The notes beneath the pieces were generated by a model, which was given only the letters and a program-made list of their open reading frames with translations, had not been told where the DNA came from and made no database searches. 64,000 bases of DNA from Vermamoeba vermiformis (taxonomy: Eukaryota), in NCBI GenBank assembly GCA_045837725.1, contig JBEWZL010000123.1, positions 186,001-250,000 on the forward strand, written 5' to 3'. Below are positions 16,541-49,470 of this stretch, piece by piece. How positions within the stretch are numbered: the stretch's first letter is position 1; each line of letters starts with the position of its first letter. The translations under genes were made by a program, and so were the position numbers.

Positions 16541-19006
16541 TCAATCCAAGTGCACACGTTGCAGCTCGTGACTTTTGAACTGCGCTGAACACGTAGGACA
16601 CGCGAATAAATTGCTGCCTGGCACTTGCGAGACACATCCGCGACACGTCACTAACAAACATCGGTTAGATACTATATAAGGTAATAATGGAAGGTTATTA
16701 TTATAAACTTACAGTGGCTGCAAGGATAAGCTACGCCCCAAGTAATGTCTCGACTGCATCTGCCACACAATCGCGCGGGTTTCACTCGTTTGGCCCGTTC
16801 TTCGTCCTCATACACGTCTTCCATATCTGGCGCAATCTCGTCAAATCTCCGCTTCACTCCGCGACCCTTGCCGTTCACTGAACTGTTATTACAAGCCACG
16901 TGATCATTCGGCAATGCTGATGTTTGATTTGTCAGCCATGTCGTAGTATTGTGCATAGGTGTCGTATTCATGTTGGAGTAGTTGGTTGGTTCGAGTTGTA
17001 GGTTCGGCAAGGATACGGATCCAAGCACATGACTTTTCGCAGAATTAGTTTCGGATTGTTGAAACAGCGTGTTTGGCAGCAGTCGTGTGGCATAAATCGA
17101 ATTAGATGATAGGCTAAGTTGTTGTAGCAGCCGTTGAGAATTATAGCGATCTAAATCCGCTTTCAGGGCTAAATCTGGCAAAACTTGAGCAGCAGTCATT
17201 GGCAGACCAGTAAATGGATCTGTTCCGTGATTGATCAGGTGTCGTGTGACTTGATAAGGTTAAGGAAAAGAAAAATAATTGAAAAATTTTTTGACATAAT
17301 TTCAATCCTTGACCAAACGTTGACTAAGGAATTGACGTTCAATTTCAAAAGAATATCTGTGACTAATTATGACTCATATTTGAATAAGGATACTAGTTGA
17401 CCTATCCACGACGTGTTTGGATGGTAAAATGACCGGATCTGACATGAGATGAAAAGTGATCGGATCGAGGAACTTGTCAGGCACACCATAGGCTTGTTCA
17501 GTGTTCGTGGGCAGACCAAATGGTGATGGTTGCTGGTCTGACGAGTTCCCAGCATGATCTATAGCCATAGACGAGCTACGCAGGTCAACATGGAAACTTC
17601 CAACGGTGTTACTGGCCGTTGACAACTGCATGGCCCTGGTTGAAGAATCCGATTCCTCCGCTCTGCCCGCATCAATCGTAGGCGAAGAATTGTTTTCTGG
17701 ACTATAACTCGACTGCAGCATGTTGTTGAGATTGGTGCGGGTGGATCCGTTATTCGTGTTGCCGCTGAGCAAATGATTCAACGAGGAGCTGAAGACAGGT
17801 GCACCCTGATTGAACGCTTGTCGTCTAGCACGATGTTGTTGCAGTGCTTGTTCGAATGCAGCATTCAGTGAGGGTGGATTGTGTCGCGAATACGTCGCCC
17901 AGATCCGTACTTGTTTTAACGCCAAACTGCCCGCATTAAGTGCTACACAAATACTATTAGCCAACGTGTCCCATATCATGATTAGCATCATTTTTTGTTT
18001 GAGTGCCTAATAGGTAATTTTGTTCGAGGAAATTCTGGCTTACATTTTTGTAATCGAATTTTGATGGCTCTGACTTTGTGCATGAGTGAAGTGTTGCGCT
18101 CAAATGGCACGATATTAGCCACTCGATCGCGCGGCAGTTGAGCGATGAGTGCCTGTGCCTCGTCAGTACCAGCACTTGAGTACTGAGTTGAATCCATTCA
18201 TCTGCGCATAATTCCCTCCACTAGTGTTATTATCGACGGTGCGTGATCGACTCAATCGCACGATATTATCGCCCTAATTAGGCAACAAACGTAATGTCAG
18301 TAAAAAACATAATTATTATATTTGTATTGCTAGTGTAGATTATTCGTTGCAGTAATTCTGTGTAATACGTACGATATTATTAAGGCTATTTAAAGTGATG
18401 CAAGGCTTGAAATAATGTTGCAATTGAGCTGCTTTTGATGGATCCCACTCGTGTTCTGACACATAGACCGAGGCCACTTGGGCTAACAAAGATATAAATA
18501 ACGTACCGATATGTTATAATAAGGTACTATATGCTTACTACATTGAGCAGAGACTTTTGGAGAAAGATCCAGCGCATAAAGTTCGATCCAGTACCTGCAA
18601 ATAGATTAGCAATTGGCGCCATAAAATTCTGAATAAATAACTTACGGAAATGAGAGTATTATATCTATTGGGGGCTTAATAAAACCTGGTGTCATAAAAC
18701 CTGAAGAAGTGATAAATTATTGAGATCTGCGTCTCTTGATCAATTTAATTATGATCTTACCTCTATCGCCCTCGATTATATTATTTGTTTCGTATCCGTC
18801 TACAGAAACAGCAGCATCACAATGAATGCTGCAACCTAAGAAAATTATTAAAATCAATTATATTTATATTTGAAGTTCAAAAAAGATTTGCTCGATTTAA
18901 TACGTGACAAATTTTGTATTTAAATAGCTATATTGTATAATTATTTCAAGGCAAAATTAGCGGGTTAATTACCTAGATCTGAATAAGCGAAATTTATCAA
19001 TGACAT
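16541..19006 (-). CDS. UBOX5: U-box and RING E3 ligase UBOX5/RNF37-like
   Basis: N-terminus MSLINF...IHCDAAVSVDGYETNNII; U-box [35 protein letters not shown]...DPFTG; C-terminal RING CGRC..CSH..CRGC..CPTC. Confidence 0.8.
17250..17393 (-). other. U12-type (minor spliceosome) GT-AG intron in the U-box
   Basis: 5' GTATCCTT; TTTTCCTTAAC branch site 9 nt from the 3' end; splicing restores DRST-I-TRHL. Confidence 0.92.
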
Positions 19007-35305: not shown

Positions 35306-38300
35306 ATGGACTCCGATAGTGTCAACTCCGAAGTGGAGAATATGGAAGTCGCCAGCATGAGGTACGATTTGCTTTCAATTTTTGGGATTCGATCGCGATT
35401 AGCAAAACGTTTTTTCATTTTTTGTTTTAAAATAAACCAATTGCATAACCATGTATAAAAGATCGTCTCTAATGCGATTTTGACGATCTTGATGCAGTCC
35501 TATTTTTTATTTTAATAATGACAGATCTAATCCACTTATTTTGCAGCGGATCTGGTGAAGAATCTCAAAATGAACAGCCCCAAAAGAAGGGTGTTAAACG
35601 AAAGGCATCAGAGGCCGGCTTAGGTATGACTAAAGCGAAACTAGTTGTTTGGATCGAAGATCACGATCTAACGTTCTGTGCTTGTAGACAAAGGCGAAGC
35701 TCGTAAAAAACAGAAATTAAAATTGAAAGAAAAGAAAATGGCGAAGCCAAACGCTCAGATGGTTTACGGTAAGTTCAACTTCGCTATCTGGATCAGATCA
35801 CTTCGTGCCGATTTCTCATTCTTATTTTTCATTATAGAGGCCAAAAAATTATGGGAACAAGTTAGACAAAAGAAAATTGAAAATGAAAAGAGAAAAGAAC
35901 TCGTTGGAAAGTTGATCGAAGTTGTTCAAGGCAAGATCCACGACGTTGTGTTCAAGAGCGATGCTTCTCGTGTGATTCAATGCATTTTGAAACATGGCAA
36001 TGAAGAGCACAGAAAAATCGTATTCACTGAATTGAAGGGTAAGAATCAACCTTTTTCTAATCCGCAGATCCGTCTGCCTGATCTTAGTCAACAAGATAAC
36101 TGATGCAAATCTAACATATAGATCATATTGTCGCCTTGGCTACTAACAACTACGGCCGCTTCTTGTTGATGAAGATGCTCAAGTACGGCACCAAAGAACA
36201 ACGCAACACTATTATCAGAACCTTCTACGGCTTTATTCGCAAGCAAATTAAGCACAGAGTAAGTTGATGACCTAATATATTTATAGTAATAGCATTATAC
36301 TAATATGATGACATTAGAATGCTTCAGAGGTCATCGAATACATCTTTACTGAGATCGCCACTGCACAACAACGAAATGAAATTATGGAAGAGTTTTACGG
36401 TCTTGAATACTCTACTTTTAAGGTTAGTAACGTATTATAGGTAGTCATGAAGAGCGTTGCGAACGGATGCGATCCGCTACGCGAGAAGGTTTATTGCAAA
36501 TACTAACGTTTATTTATAGACCTACGACAACCGAACACTCGAGACTATTCTCGAACAACACCCTGAGCGCAAAGAAGAGATTTTGAAGTTTATGAACGAG
36601 TACTTCTCGGCTCTGATTGACCAAGAGAACTTGTCCATTCGCTTTGACGTCATTCATGCGCCTCTATTGAAATACTTCCAGTATCCTTTTCAATTTAACT
36701 ATTCTCGTCCAATTAGATCATTTTTAAGATCCGTAATCGGATCCTTACAATAACCCTCAAAATAACTAAGGCGTAGTAATAATACAACGGAACAGTGTGT
36801 AGTCATCATGGTTCTGTTCTTTTTGAGCATGAATCACGATGACTTCAGTCGGTGGTGAAAGACAATTGTTTTTGATGATCGTCTGTTGTTTCTCGTTATT
36901 TTTTGAAGTTGTGGTTTTTGTTTTGCATCATTTGGTATTCATTATCAAGTGGTGTCAAGATAGCAACAACGATCAATTAGACGTTTGAGACTTGAAGATC
37001 GAACAATCAAGTCTTTTGATTGCTTCGCTTCAATATTCACCGACAAGCACCAAACAACAACAAAACTCGTTCCAAGAACAAAGTTTGGGCCTTCATAGTA
37101 CAAAGTGATTGCTTTATTCTTGATTCATCACTTTGCCTCCATAGTCCCTACATTCTTATAAACACATAATAACGATAATTTACAAATATTACCTTTTATG
37201 GAAAGTTATTCCTTAACCTTGTCTCCAGACACGCCAGTCACAAGCAGATTGTCGAAATGGCCGGCAAGTTGAACAAGATTCTGCCCCTCATTCTGCACAC
37301 GCGCAACGGCTCCAAGTTGTGTTTGTACTGCATTAACTACGGTGCTGCCAAGGACCGTAAAGCCATCATCAAGTCATTCAAGGGTCTCATCACTAAGATC
37401 TCCAAGGAAGAGTTCGGTCATATCGGTACGTACTTCAAATACTTTGGTGACATAAGCGCACGTGCTGATGCATTGTTTTAGTTCTTTTGAAGCTTCTTGA
37501 TTGCGTGGACGACACTGTGCTAGTCTCCAAACAAATTTTGAACGAAGTTAAGAAGAACTTGATGGAAATCATTCAAGACAAATACGGCCGTCTCGTGCTT
37601 CTCCAGTTGTTAGTACCTGGCAACAAGAGGTACTTCCCTCAGGTCACTATCGACTTGTTGCAGCCTGTCTTGGTTCCATCTGCCGAAGACCCCACCAAGC
37701 TCGTGAGCACTAGCAAGAAAGACCCTGAGATCCGTCGTCTTGAGTTGTGGAACACTATGCAAAAGGACATAATTGCCATGTTCAAGCGCTTTATGTACAA
37801 AATCATCACGAACTACCAAGCACGCGACGTCTTGTTAGAGACTATTATTGCTACCACTGGTAAGTTTCTAAACTATACTCGTAATAACAAGGCTAATGTA
37901 AAATGTGATAGACGCCAAGATCAAACAAGAGCTCTACGACGCCGTTCTCGAATGGGTTGACTTTGACGCCGAAGCCATGGCCCAACGCATCCAAGAAGAA
38001 GACGAAGAAGAGTCTCAATTGATGCGCGAGTTGTTGCAAGAGAACGAGAAGCTTGAAGCTCAACTCCGTGAAGAGCGCAAGCAACGTGCCGCTGAAATTG
38101 CTCTGAAGAACAAGAAGGCCAAAGAAGCTGAGCGCACTGGTGGCAATGTTGAAGAGGACGAAGAGCCTCAACAACCTCAAAAGGGCAAGGGCAAGGCTGG
38201 TCAACAGCAAGAAGTCCACGATCACAGCGAAGTGCTGGTTGGTGCTCCTACGAAGAAGTTCAAGAAGCTCAAGAACCCTCTTGAGGCCAACAAAGAGAAA

Positions 38301-39208: not shown

Positions 39209-39283
39209 GAACTACAATAAAATAAAAATTCAAAATTATTATAGCCAAACAATAGTTAGTGTAAAAAGATTTTTCTCATAATT

Positions 39284-39326
39284 TTCTTTTTTTTTTTTTT
39301 TTTTTTGCCTTTTTTTTTTTTTTAAA

Positions 39327-39363
<37 letters not shown>
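39284..39363. repeat. Poly(T) tract between PUF6 and the next gene
   Basis: About 80 nt of almost pure T with a few interruptions. Confidence 0.9.
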
Positions 39364-39365
<2 letters not shown>

Positions 39366-39504
39366 CTTCGTGCGTCGGTTGTGTTCAATGAAATTTTAGA
39401 CGGGATCTATTTTAGACAAAATCTTTTTTGTTGAATATTGATACAACAAGTGCAATGAAGTGAGAATTATTTGGGCATACATAACAAATCAAATCAAGAA
39501 TAAG

Positions 39505-42944: not shown

Positions 42945-43757
42945 ATGCAAATGAAATCCCTCTTTGTCGTATTTGTTGCTCTTTGCCTTGCCACTATTGT
43001 TTTGGCGAAGGATCCCGCCAAGCCAAAGCCTCCTACCAAATACACTCTGTCTGCCTTTGCTATTACCCCCAATGGCAACCACTCTGTTCGTTCTTACTAC
43101 GATCAAGCCAATGCTAGGTAGGTGGCAACATATGAACATCGTTCGAGCAATTTTAATAATTTGGATCCGCAGAGCTCGCACTGACATTTTGGACAACAAG
43201 TTTGTTCAAGTCGGAGAGTTCATTGGTCTCTACGAAGAGGTAAGTATACTACGATTATATAATACTATTCTTAGTTAATAAAATGATGAAATAGAAAAAG
43301 GGTCACTTCTACAACAGCACCACTGGTCAATGCGCCGTCTATGGTCTTAGCGCTGGTTGGGTGAACACCTGGGACTTCTTGAACAACGCTACTTTCTACG
43401 GCAACGATACTTTTGCTGCTAACAAGTCTTGCGAACTTTGGGCTTCTAAGCTCGGTAAGCTAATCCACATGCGATCCTGAATTCTCAGAATAATTTTTAA
43501 TGTTTTAACCAACACCCAATGTAGAGAAGAACATGACTTTGGCTGCGTGCTTCTCTCACGAGATCCCCGTCTTCGTTGGTCTTTATAACGGCACTCAAGT
43601 CAACTCGCTCTATTTCATCACTCACTTCGAGGCCGCGGTTAGCAAGGATGTTTTCAGCTTGCCCAGCACGTGCCACAAGACCTCTTTCAAGTTGTCCACT
43701 ATGCCGTTGTTGAACTTGAAGAAATTCAAGGTTCCTGCTCATCCTCTTCTCTTTTAA
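42945..43757 (+). CDS. Secreted ependymin-related-like protein, paralogue A
   Basis: Signal peptide, PAKPKPP, YYD, NSTTGQC, DVFSLPSTC, C-terminus KVPAHPLLF. Confidence 0.6.
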
Positions 43758-44153: not shown

Positions 44154-44934
44154 ATGCAACCAACAAGATCTTACTTCGTCATTCTATCAGCATTATGCTT
44201 GGCTACGATCGCACTGGCTGGAGATCCACCCAAGCCGAATCCACCAACTTCTTATTCCGTTTCATTGTTTACTTTCTCTCGAAATGGTTACGAAGCCACT
44301 CGGACTTACTACAACCAAACTACAAAGAGGTATTTTTTCCGAGATCGCGTTCTTTTGAGTATTAACAGCTCTGCAGCGCTAGAACTGATACGTTCGACCA
44401 AAATTTCAACCCCGTGAGCGAGTTCATTGGCTTTTGGGCACATGTATGTTATTTTTGTCGCCTACTGCGAGCTGATCAAGGACTTTCAGAAACGAGGCTA
44501 CATGTACAATAGCACCACCGGTCAATGCCAGGTCATCGCTTTAACCTCTCCTTGGGCAAACACTTGGGACATCTTAAACAACGCTACGTTCAGTGGTGTT
44601 GAAACGACGTACAAAGGCGAGAAGTGCGTGATGTGGATCACAGCTCTCGGTAAGTTAACCTCGACGGTAGCTTTTATCAATACGATGTTAATCTATTACA
44701 GACAACAATAAGGAACTAAATAGTTGCTTCAATGAGAACACCCCTGTTTATTTTAGCTTGTACGACGGGGGTAATGTGGTCTTTCTCTCTTTCGTCACCA
44801 GTTTCAGTCCGGATGTGGATCCATCAGTGTTTGAGGTGCCGGGCTCTTGCGGCTTCGGTGTGACCCCTCAGTCACCGATGAACTCTGACAACTTGAAGAA
44901 GTACAAGGTCCCTGCTCACCCTCTTCTCTTTTAA
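44154..44934 (+). CDS. Secreted ependymin-related-like protein, paralogue B
   Basis: Same exon layout and motifs (PPKPNPP, NSTTGQC, DPSVFEVPGSC, KVPAHPLLF). Confidence 0.6.
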
Positions 44935-46856: not shown

Positions 46857-49470
46857 TTAATTGCCCTTCCAATAATCACGCATCTTTTGGAAAGTATTGT
46901 GCCAAAATCCACTCGATGTGTCGTGTTGTGCTTCTAATGTTTCTTCTTTTGCAAATTCTTCAATCAATTGCCTCTGTTTTTCGCTCAGTTTCTTCGGGAT
47001 CTGCACTTTGAAGTGAATGAACTATCGATATGAAACTCGTTAGAATATGAATATATTGACCTAGTTGTAGTCTTAATCATACCTGACTGCCAGTCTCGCC
47101 GCCAGCTTTAGATACACCGCGGCCTCGCAGCACGCGTTTTTCAGCGTTTTGAATGCCAGGTGGTACTTTGACATCGACTTCACCGGTCAATGTCGGCACT
47201 CTGACAGTGCCACCAAGAATGGCAACACTCACGGGGAGAGGTACATCAATGTGTATGTCAGTGCCTTCACGGCGGAATAACTCGTGAGGCGTGACATTGA
47301 CGTGAAGGTAGAGGTGGCCGGGTTGACCGCCCTTTGGTCCCGCGTCACCCTGGCCCTTCAACCGAATGTTGTTGCCCTGGTCAATGCCAGCAGGGATCTT
47401 GACGCGCAATGTCTTCGTGTCTTCTTTCACGCCCGCGCCCTTGCACACGCCGCACGGTGTTTCAATCACGACACCTTCGCCCTTGCATTTGCGACACGTG
47501 CGTTGCATGCCCATGAAGCCCATGGACACCACTTCCACGCCTGAACCACCGCAGTTCGTGCAGCCTGAGACACGTGTGCCTGGCTTGGCGCCTGTGCCGT
47601 CACATGTCTTGCAGGTTGACTTGGCTTGGTATCGGATCTGCCGTGAAAGTTAGGTCAGTGCATTGCCATAAAAGGAAATAACAGCGTGATAGATCGTACC
47701 TCTTTCTCGCAGCCAGTAATAGCCTCCATAAACGACAAATTAATGCCGACTTCGATATTATTTCCTTTTTTGGGACCACCAGTCGGTCCGTCTTCAAACA
47801 TGTTGCCGAATCCTCCGCCGAATTCTTCTTGAATCTTGCGGAATATCTCTTCAGGGCTCGTAAATCCTCCGAAGCCTCCGCCGGGGAATCCTCCGAAGCC
47901 ACCAAATCCTCCACCAGGGCCGCCATTTGCACCCGCAGCATTGCCTTCAAATGCCTGCGAGCCATAAGCATCATATGTCTTGCGCTTTTCATCGTCTGAC
48001 AGCACTTCATAAGCCTGACTAATATCTGTGAATTTTTTGTGCGCATCCGCTGACTTGTTGGTGTCAGGGTGGTATTGTTTCGCGAGTGCGTAATATGCTT
48101 TTTTGATTTCATTCTTTGACGCGTTCTTTGACACGCCTAATATCTCGTAGTAATCTTTTTTTGCTCGTGGCACTGCGCAGTGAAAAAAAACGAGTTAGAG
48201 AACCATTGCCATAAAAGGAAATTATCGTACGAGCAACGCGTCATTATAAGAGTAATATTATGGTTTGTATGAATAACTTTCCATAAAAGGTAATATTTGT
48301 AATTATCGTTATTGTGTGTTTATAAGAATGTAGGGACTATGGAGGCAAAGTGATGAATCAAGAATAAAGCAATCACTTTGTACTATGAAGGCCCAAACTT
48401 TGTTCTTGGAACGAGTTTTGTTGTTGTTTGGTGCTTGTCGGTGAATATTGAAGCGAAGCAATCAAAAGACTTGATTGTTCGATCTTCAAGTCTCAAACGT
48501 CTAATTGATCGTTGCCGCTGCTTTCTTGCACCACTTGATAATGAATACCAAATGATGCAAAACAAAACCACAACGTCAAAAAATAACGAGAAACAACAGA
48601 CGATCATCAAAAACAATTGTCTTTCACCACCGACTGAAGTCATCGTGATTCATGCTCAAAAAGAACCGAACCACAATGACTCCACACTGTTCCGTTGTAT
48701 TATCACTACGCGTAGTTATTTTGAGGGTTATTGTAAGGATCCGCTGAAGATCCGATGTTCGCTTCGTATTGTTTCGATATACAAATTAAGTAAATATATA
48801 ATTATTGTTGAGTTTAAAGTCATTATAGTATTATTAATGATAATACTAAAGCTATAATTGTTAAGTTTGAAAATGACGCGTGTCGTAACAATGAGTTCAC
48901 TAAATGTTCGCTTACCTGTAGAGGTGTGAAATTGAGTATATGAAATATTGTCGGCAATATTGTCCTATAATAGAAGTTATTAGTCGACCCTGTTTGGACG
49001 ATCCAGATACAGTTCCAGATCCAAAATAGTTCTGTTAATATTCAGAATTGTTCGATTTGCCACAATGATATTAAATATTAATAGCAGACGTGTCCTATAC
49101 TTTTAGGCGAGGGAGGACCAAGCCAATTCAATAAAACAACACGAAAATATTTTATAATTCTAGATCGCAGTTAAATTACCTGTTGGGCGTTTAATAAAGT
49201 TGTATTTGTATGTTCTGAGGGAAGGCTAACAGAGCGCTTTTTTTCTGTATATTTAAAAAATGGATCAGAACGAATCAGATGCCAGATGAAAATTTGTCGT
49301 TGCATAAATAGAGCCGAATACTTACTACGCGCGTTATTTGTACAGCTGCAGTTGCTGTGAGTATTATTGAACAAGGATAAAGGCTTAGCACTCGAGTGGA
49401 ACTTCCTTGCTTTTGATGCGGCAGATCTGGACAGACGCTTGCAAGCGACTTTAGTTGTGTTGGAAAGCAT
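46857..49470 (-). CDS. DNAJA3: Mitochondrial type I DnaJ (Mdj1/DNAJA3-like)
   Basis: Presequence, J-domain with HPD, G/F region, four CxxCxGxG repeats, C-terminal domain. Confidence 0.9.
48326..48696 (-). ncRNA. Long intronic box H/ACA RNA, copy 2 (in DnaJ intron 48173-48915)
   Basis: H box, 3' hairpin and ACA identical to copy 1; sense to the host gene. Confidence 0.7.

Follow-up and report, generated by a model that had tools for sequence, protein, structure and literature searches.

What does a stretch of some 470 nucleotides (nt) represent when it is found almost unchanged within introns of two unrelated genes, and why should the likeness end at a branch site in one of them and be bracketed by an inverted repeat in the other? 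These questions are raised by a locus of Vermamoeba vermiformis (assembly GCA_045837725.1, contig JBEWZL010000123.1), of which positions 186,001 to 250,000 of the forward strand were analysed; this stretch of 64,000 nt is called the window, and all positions are counted from its first letter. One copy (copy A) lies in an intron of a PUF6-like gene and the other (copy B) in an intron of a DnaJ gene. We consider it reasonably probable that the two are paralogous copies of an intron-hosted gene for a structured RNA of about 367 nt, probably of the box H/ACA class, which have been homogenised by gene conversion.

The DnaJ intron was compared with the window by blastn, and copy B (48271-48743, minus strand, 473 nt) was found to match copy A (36738-37211, plus strand) with 96.4% identity over 477 columns on opposite strands. 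The same pair was returned by a repeat search as inverted arms of 219 nt at 99% and 153 nt at 95% identity, in agreement with the sequence alignments. The copies are separated by about 11 kb and inverted relative to each other, and each of them is sense to its own host gene. Read in the PUF6 sense, the shared sequence terminates with ...GGAAAGTTATTC and overlaps the branch motif TCCTTAAC (37210-37217) by 2 nt; the first 57 nt and the last 17 nt of the PUF6 intron are missing from the copy. The shared flanks around the predicted RNA, as measured against the RNA model built in this analysis, amount to 51 and 56 nt in copy A and 50 and 55 nt in copy B. The second copy, its boundaries and its orientation are confirmed by these results: the original prediction had placed the end of identity at the U12 branch sequence, and the end was found 2 nt inside the motif, while the flank of about 50 nt that it gave for each side of the RNA corresponds to the measured 50-56 nt.

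The host of copy B is a minus-strand gene with J, CXXCXGXG and C-terminal domains (Pfam), that is, a DnaJ of mitochondrial type, whose exons 1-3 occupy 49470-48916. Copy B sits in the third intron (48173-48915, minus strand, 743 nt), which is of U2 type, runs from GTAAGC to CAG with CTCTAAC at 48194-48200, and was predicted from the exon frames and the J domain, not from reads; these coordinates bear out the earlier placement of the copy in a 743-nt U2-type intron. The other DnaJ introns measure 62-216 nt. The host of copy A is a plus-strand gene with a CPL domain, as in ribosome biogenesis proteins of the PUF6/PUM3 type, and a protein-family comparison agreed with the DnaJ and PUF6-like families. 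Its intron (36681-37228, plus strand, 548 nt) starts with GTATCCTTTT (36681-36690) and carries TCCTTAAC 10 nt before the terminal AG (37227-37228), and because of these two signals we read it as a U12-type intron; the 5′ site (RTATCCTT), the branch motif and the short distance to the 3′ site were all found as expected for this type. Both host genes are in frame only in the arrangement of the window.

When the 660-nt sense strand was folded, a z value of -5.9 was obtained and none of 20 shuffles was as good. In the alignment fold the sense strand reached -67.0 kcal/mol versus -51.4 kcal/mol for the antisense strand. A consensus of 108 pairs, with 94.7% of cells paired, was obtained with RNAalifold from three sequences, namely copy A, copy B and L001, a short-read metagenome contig from a relative. 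Pairs changed on both sides numbered nine, compared with 3.3 +/- 1.5 in shuffles (0 of 500) and 1-4 in slid controls, a count that compares only two lineages on a structure derived from the same sequences. The compensatory changes include a G-C to A-U replacement in the GUCGGUGG/UCACCGAC stem and two in the outer stem.

From the consensus, the pair counts and the landmarks, the predicted RNA was placed at 36789-37155 in copy A (plus strand, about 367 nt) and at 48326-48693 in copy B (minus strand, about 368 nt), both ends being approximate. The model comprises, from 5′ to 3′, an outer stem formed by GGAACAGU and ACUCGUUCC, a first hairpin, a large domain closed by GUCGGUGG and UCACCGAC, a hinge, a 3′ hairpin and an ACA. 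The 5′ domain is branched, about 290 nt long and closed by an 8-bp terminal stem. In the hinge an H-box-like motif was found, AGAACA in both copies (48401-48406, minus strand, in copy B; 37075-37080 in copy A) and AUAACA in L001. The 3′ hairpin of 62 nt (48333-48394, minus strand; 37087-37148 in copy A) is invariant between the window and L001 except for one indel, with helices 12 and 13 never varying, and is directly followed by the ACA (48329-48331, minus strand; 37150-37152 in copy A), 15 nt past the upper stem. These results suggest that the segment encodes a functional structured RNA, and we would put more confidence in this statement than in the class assignment below. According to the model, the RNA would be expressed and might be released from the introns.

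The features of the box H/ACA class were then compared with the model. The layout of hairpin, hinge, hairpin and tail was found, with a large branched domain as the 5′ element. A box H (ANANNA) lies in the hinge of all three sequences, 6-8 nt before the 3′ hairpin; the spacing from the top of the pocket to the ACA is 15 nt (37135-37149), within the range of 14-16 nt; and the ACA, which in this class stands three nucleotides from the 3′ end, is invariant and close to the predicted 3′ end. Sub-threshold matches to SNORA23 (E about 8.5) were obtained on the sense strand at the 3′ module in three of three sequences. The likeness to the intron-encoded box H/ACA small nucleolar RNAs (snoRNAs) and scaRNAs of animals and fungi, including their long and tandem forms, thus extends to the sense placement in an intron, with one of the hosts a ribosome-biogenesis gene, to the terminal hairpin followed by an ACA, to the ANANNA motif in the hinge and to the 15-nt spacing between upper stem and ACA. 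In contrast to these RNAs, a branched 5′ domain of about 290 nt stands here in place of a simple hairpin, the total is about 367 nt, and no Rfam match at threshold was obtained. On balance the RNA may well be a box H/ACA RNA with an oversized 5′ domain, for which we see an even chance or slightly better. A literature search for H/ACA RNAs in U12-type introns gave nothing specific, and we do not claim the combination as unpublished.

Further insight came from the relative. A metagenome scan with a PUF6 exon gave 27 loci, of which L001 was the only close one, with 90-100% amino-acid identity and with 82.9% and 81.6% nucleotide identity in two ungapped exons; at the site of the PUF6 intron, inspected in three of the 27 loci, no intron was present in the other two (L026 and L002). 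Along L001 we read the upstream neighbour gene of DnaJ, exons 1-3 of DnaJ itself, the initial 45 nt or so of the DnaJ intron, a diverged version of the element, TCCTTAAC (1801-1808), the 3′ splice site and the 3′ exons of PUF6. The DnaJ side corresponds to the reverse complement of window positions 50426-48890. Such a linkage, in which the flanks are swapped, is the expected product of recombination between two inverted copies, and it would put both genes out of frame. Since the exons of L001 are nevertheless well conserved, the contig is most likely a short-read chimera through the repeat, a real inversion haplotype being less likely. We regard it as unlikely, though not extremely so, that recombination flipped the 11-kb segment on a real chromosome, leaving a hybrid U2/U12 intron and both genes broken; if it did, the pair of RNA genes would be a repeat homogenised by conversion and at the same time a hotspot of recurrent inversion that heterozygotes tolerate. 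Whether by chimera or by inversion, the element stands beside a DnaJ flank and a PUF6 flank, and hence the relative probably has both copies.

In the RNA region, copies A and B are identical at 363 of 375 positions (96.8%), whereas the identity with L001 is 261/355 (73.5%) for copy A and 262/356 (73.6%) for copy B. Paralogues thus resemble each other far more closely than orthologues do, which argues for concerted evolution. At the 15 columns in which the two copies differ, L001 agrees with copy B at six, with copy A at five and with neither at four. The 19 differences between the copies in 476 columns are clustered and leave an identical run of 200 nt (48315-48514; P = 0.0005). This run covers stretches that differ freely between the species, and selective constraint alone is therefore insufficient to account for it. 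An old duplication kept alike by gene conversion would be the simplest reading, one which depends on L001. Gene conversion between the copies was not weighed in the original prediction, and the data favour it.

We propose that the RNA would be released from the spliced introns of its PUF6-like (U12-type) and DnaJ (U2-type) hosts, since both copies are sense to them. The duplication would predate the split from the relative with about 82% exon identity, and gene conversion would have kept the copies and their flanks of about 50 nt at 96-97% identity. The edge of identity at the U12 branch motif would then be the edge of the originally duplicated tract; as conversion cannot extend into unlike flanks, the present edges would lie at or inside the original ones, and PUF6 splicing would also suffer if a tract crossed the branch site. 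As for the inverted repeat, it would not delimit the copy as a terminal repeat but would be a local stem of the DnaJ intron, which may bring the splice sites closer. Both the stem and the boundary at the branch point are real features with ordinary explanations.

Several observations weigh against this proposal. The narrow base of the covariation count has been given above. In the RNAalifold consensus some of the presumed pocket in the 3′ hairpin is paired, the 5′ domain greatly exceeds that of ordinary H/ACA RNAs in size, and the distance from the single-stranded 3′ strand of this domain to the H box is non-canonical. No Rfam family was found at gathering score, either in the whole window or in lax scans of the three copies. 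The sub-threshold match to SNORA12 (E = 3e-4) was obtained with one of the three sequences, copy A, in a region with no proper H or ACA box, and is not relied on for the reason that it is confined to this copy. The presence of both copies in the relative is read from the single L001 contig, possibly a chimera, and if L001 misleads in another respect, the 96% identity would be accounted for just as well by a recent duplication. No RNA read was found on the large DnaJ intron (zero depth at 48202-49100 in the two RNA runs X21 and X23). These runs carry the same species label and were made from complementary DNA (cDNA) libraries of a relative that is 90-95% alike in exons (26 of 32 reads in X21 and 53 of 60 in X23); the lack of intron reads is weak evidence on account of both the relative and the type of library.

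Among the other explanations, an assembly artefact or a functionless recent segmental duplication has to be considered for copy B, and we hold it to be highly improbable. In its favour, no read or contig spans a whole copy: in the DNA run X1 no record does so, and the linkage across the repeat, with its identical stretch of 200 nt that reaches beyond unitigs, comes from the assembly and from the in-frame genes. On the other hand, the contigs of X1 contain the left junction of copy B (48215-48344) with no differences and both flanks of copy A as loose ends, copy-specific variants are joined to the matching flanks, and it is only in the arrangement of the window that both genes are in frame. The element core had a depth of 1089 in X1 against 489-671 on single-copy flanks, and this roughly twofold depth fits two copies rather than a repeat family. 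A functionless duplication is further opposed by L001, in which the element is conserved with covariation and with an invariant block of 75 nt while the flanking intron is much more diverged.

How the second copy arose is a separate matter, and the original prediction had considered an intron or lariat intermediate as the source. In such an origin the copy would be a snoRNA retroposon, similar to those of type 2, derived from the excised PUF6 intron after its tail had been shortened as far as the branch point, and integrated into the DnaJ intron in the sense orientation. According to the available part of Weber 2006 (PMC1687206), mammalian type-2 snoRNA retroposons lack the last 3-17 bp of the parental intron and mostly lie in sense in their new host introns; their end is attributed there to polyadenylation at or near the branch point, and their start corresponds to the mature 5′ end. 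Of the PUF6 intron, exactly the 17 nt at its 3′ end are absent from the present copy, whose edge falls 2 nt inside the branch motif. If PUF6 is taken as the parent, the copy therefore shares with these retroposons, as far as that text describes them (PMC1687206), the sense placement in a new host intron, the presence of downstream parental sequence and the stop at or near the branch point. In addition, A makes up 50% of the 20 nt that follow copy B, compared with 31% of the whole intron. As for the parentage, genes of ribosome biogenesis are more typical hosts of snoRNAs, and this was counted for PUF6.

The same origin is opposed by the absence of a proper A-rich tail and of a target-site duplication (TSD); direct matches across the copy reach 6 nt at most, a length that was equalled in 362 of 500 shuffles, against a criterion of 8-19 bp. 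Moreover, the copy takes in about 50 nt of sequence upstream of the predicted mature 5′ end, unlike the retroposons in the available account (PMC1687206), from which it further differs in its U12-type parent, in the later homogenisation of the copies and in its organism, whose intron sizes are not those of a mammal. Because the event would be older than the split from L001, such footprints may no longer be readable. Of the earlier suggestion, the end at the branch point thus stands and has a published precedent, whereas a tail, a TSD and a start at the mature end were not found. We rate an RNA-mediated origin as rather doubtful, with copying at the DNA level as the other course; it concerns the origin only and would be compatible with later gene conversion.

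The edges of the copies show some further features. At the 5′ edge of each copy (36718-36746 and 48737-48760) the shared CGGATCC... forms a small hairpin with a non-homologous upstream partner, AAGATCCG with a 4-nt loop in copy A and GGATCT with a 5-nt loop in copy B. An 8-mer beside the copy edge is reverse-complementary between the two loci. A CC(A/T)6GG word, related to the sequence shared by DnaJ introns 3 and 4 that is described below, was seen in the 3′ flank of both copies (48281 and 37192). A 10-nt direct repeat, AAGCGAACAT, lies on the minus strand at 48904-48913, at the 5′ splice site of the DnaJ intron, and at 48755-48764, just upstream of copy B. In L001 only the first AAGCGAACAT is present and the AT-rich spacer of about 128 nt between the repeats is lacking, which suggests an insertion in the lineage of the window or a deletion in the relative.

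The inverted repeat around copy B was found as the original prediction had given it, with a perfect 10-bp core at 48236-48245 and 48872-48881 extended by TACGA/TCGTA. As read from the sequence, the left arm (48228-48245) consists of TACGA (48228-48232), a 3-nt bulge and ACGCGTCATT (48236-48245), and the right arm (48872-48887) of AATGACGCGT (48872-48881), a 1-nt bulge and TCGTA (48883-48887), with variation in X1 at 48880 and 48881. The arms enclose 626 nt and are separated from the copy by 25 and 128 nt; counted from the 5′ splice site, 28 nt of the intron precede the stem, and 55 nt follow it up to the 3′ site. A perfect complement of at least 10 nt between the non-copy flanks occurred in 2.7% of 5000 composition shuffles. 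The best duplex between the flanks had -37.9 kcal/mol against -23.4 +/- 4.0 kcal/mol in shuffles, which is 3.7 standard deviations better and was reached in 0 of 300; it is GC-rich, within an AT-rich intron, and its pairing continues inward. Two variants of the right arm were seen in X1, one without the core base 48880 and the other with an extra C after the core, while the left arm was unchanged. In L001 a remnant resembling the right arm, without 6 nt, stands beside the RNA, and the partner arm is not on the contig. In the AT-rich part of the intron at 48767-48911, X1 has two contig variants with depths of 433 and 428 and several small indels, as expected for two haplotypes.

An element with terminal inverted repeats (TIRs) had been suggested as the vehicle of the copy. 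The 660-nt stretch 48228-48887 would then be a small non-autonomous DNA transposon with 10+5-bp TIRs that brought the RNA segment along or captured it. An interrupted inverted repeat of 15 bp with a TA at either border, and with a duplex energy beyond all 300 shuffles, does have this appearance, but each arm was found a single time in the 64-kb window, the palindrome includes the TA, and no other TSD is present; the proposed search for the repeat pair elsewhere with TSDs was therefore negative in the window. Moreover, 25 and 128 nt separate the arms from the sequence in common with PUF6, no arms are present in PUF6, L001 has the arm-like remnant and not an empty site, and the depth of X1 shows no extra copies. 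We consider capture by such an element very improbable.

The repeat could also be without function, a palindrome that arose by chance or is transient in an AT-rich, rapidly changing intron. A perfect 10-mer is not very rare in shuffles, many other features could have caught attention, ACGCGT is self-complementary, and the indels in the right arm of X1 beside an unchanged left arm, together with the 6 nt missing from L001, point in the same direction. Against it stand the GC-rich arms in an AT-rich intron, the strength of the duplex, and the 28 + 55 nt that the stem leaves outside, close to the 62-216 nt of the other DnaJ introns. The zipper stems known in long yeast introns (PMC2536676, PMC12350175) offer a precedent for a function: in the available parts of these reports, complementary segments likewise lie soon after the 5′ splice site and before the branch region and shorten the distance. 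In comparison with those stems, the present one is not conserved in the relative, is not invariant within the species and is known from sequence alone. A lack of function is thus a serious possibility, although somewhat short of even, and a stem that shortens the effective length of the intron would be plausible. The earlier idea that the stem loops out the insert for splicing is accordingly upheld as possible by the short remainder outside the stem, and weakened by the core base lost in one X1 variant and the 6 nt lost in L001.

For the pair of copies as a whole, a similar arrangement is found in the inverted paralogues that flank a flip/flop inversion on Saccharomyces chromosome XIV. As far as the available text of that report goes (PMC9731477), those repeats likewise lie a few kb apart, are inverted and are more alike within a genome than between species. 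The recombinant linkage also recurs on the contig of the relative, though here it may be an assembly chimera; and in the present case the repeats are hosted by introns of two genes that look essential, both of which an inversion would break.

Other identities of the element were considered and rejected. A 7-nt word resembling a telomere template, as would suit a telomerase RNA, lies in the 5′ flank outside the predicted RNA and is absent from L001. For U3 or another box C/D RNA, UGAUGA and CUGA words are present, but a terminal C/D stem and an Rfam match to U3 are both lacking. An independent antisense gene was suggested by a TATA-like word after the ACA; the antisense fold is weaker, however, its T-run is not kept in L001, and the G-U pairs favour the sense strand. 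An open frame of 166 codons (48357-48857) exists in copy B only, with indels breaking the frame in copy A. A metagenome scan with the open frame of the element as query returned nothing, and exact 27-mer scans of genome contigs and viral contigs gave no matches.

Some additional features of the window were recorded. DnaJ intron 4 (47638-47699, minus strand, 62 nt) is covered by spliced reads, five in X21 and 11 in X23. The last 60 nt or so of intron 3 (48173-48232, minus strand) resemble this entire intron: both stretches start with GTACGAT, have a CTAAC branch-like word and share an exact 19-nt motif (48204-48222 and 47661-47679; E 0.001). The likeness could reflect a small intron that was ancestral, the duplication of an intron or a signal that the introns have in common. 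At 17253-17393 on the minus strand, another intron clearly of U12 type was found; it is about 141 nt long, starts with GTATCCTTAT and has TTCCTTAAC about 10 nt before the AG, which, counted with that of PUF6, brings the number of such introns in the 64 kb to two. A tract at 39256-39379, over 100 nt long and downstream of the PUF6-like gene, is nearly all T with a short A run. A direct repeat of 45 nt, 91% identical (43713-43757 and 44890-44934), marks the C-terminal ends encoded by two paralogous genes in tandem, whose products look like small secreted proteins.

Taken in this way, the locus would hold a non-coding RNA gene in introns removed by two different spliceosomes, with paralogues more alike than orthologues, and it yields a candidate long H/ACA-like RNA. 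The breakpoint at the branch site is not unique, given the precedent of the mammalian snoRNA retroposons, which would extend to a U12-type parent if the RNA-mediated origin were true. An inverted repeat of 470 nt can also mislead short-read assemblies. More broadly, intronic RNA genes can evolve in concert and may serve as substrates of ectopic recombination between unrelated host genes.

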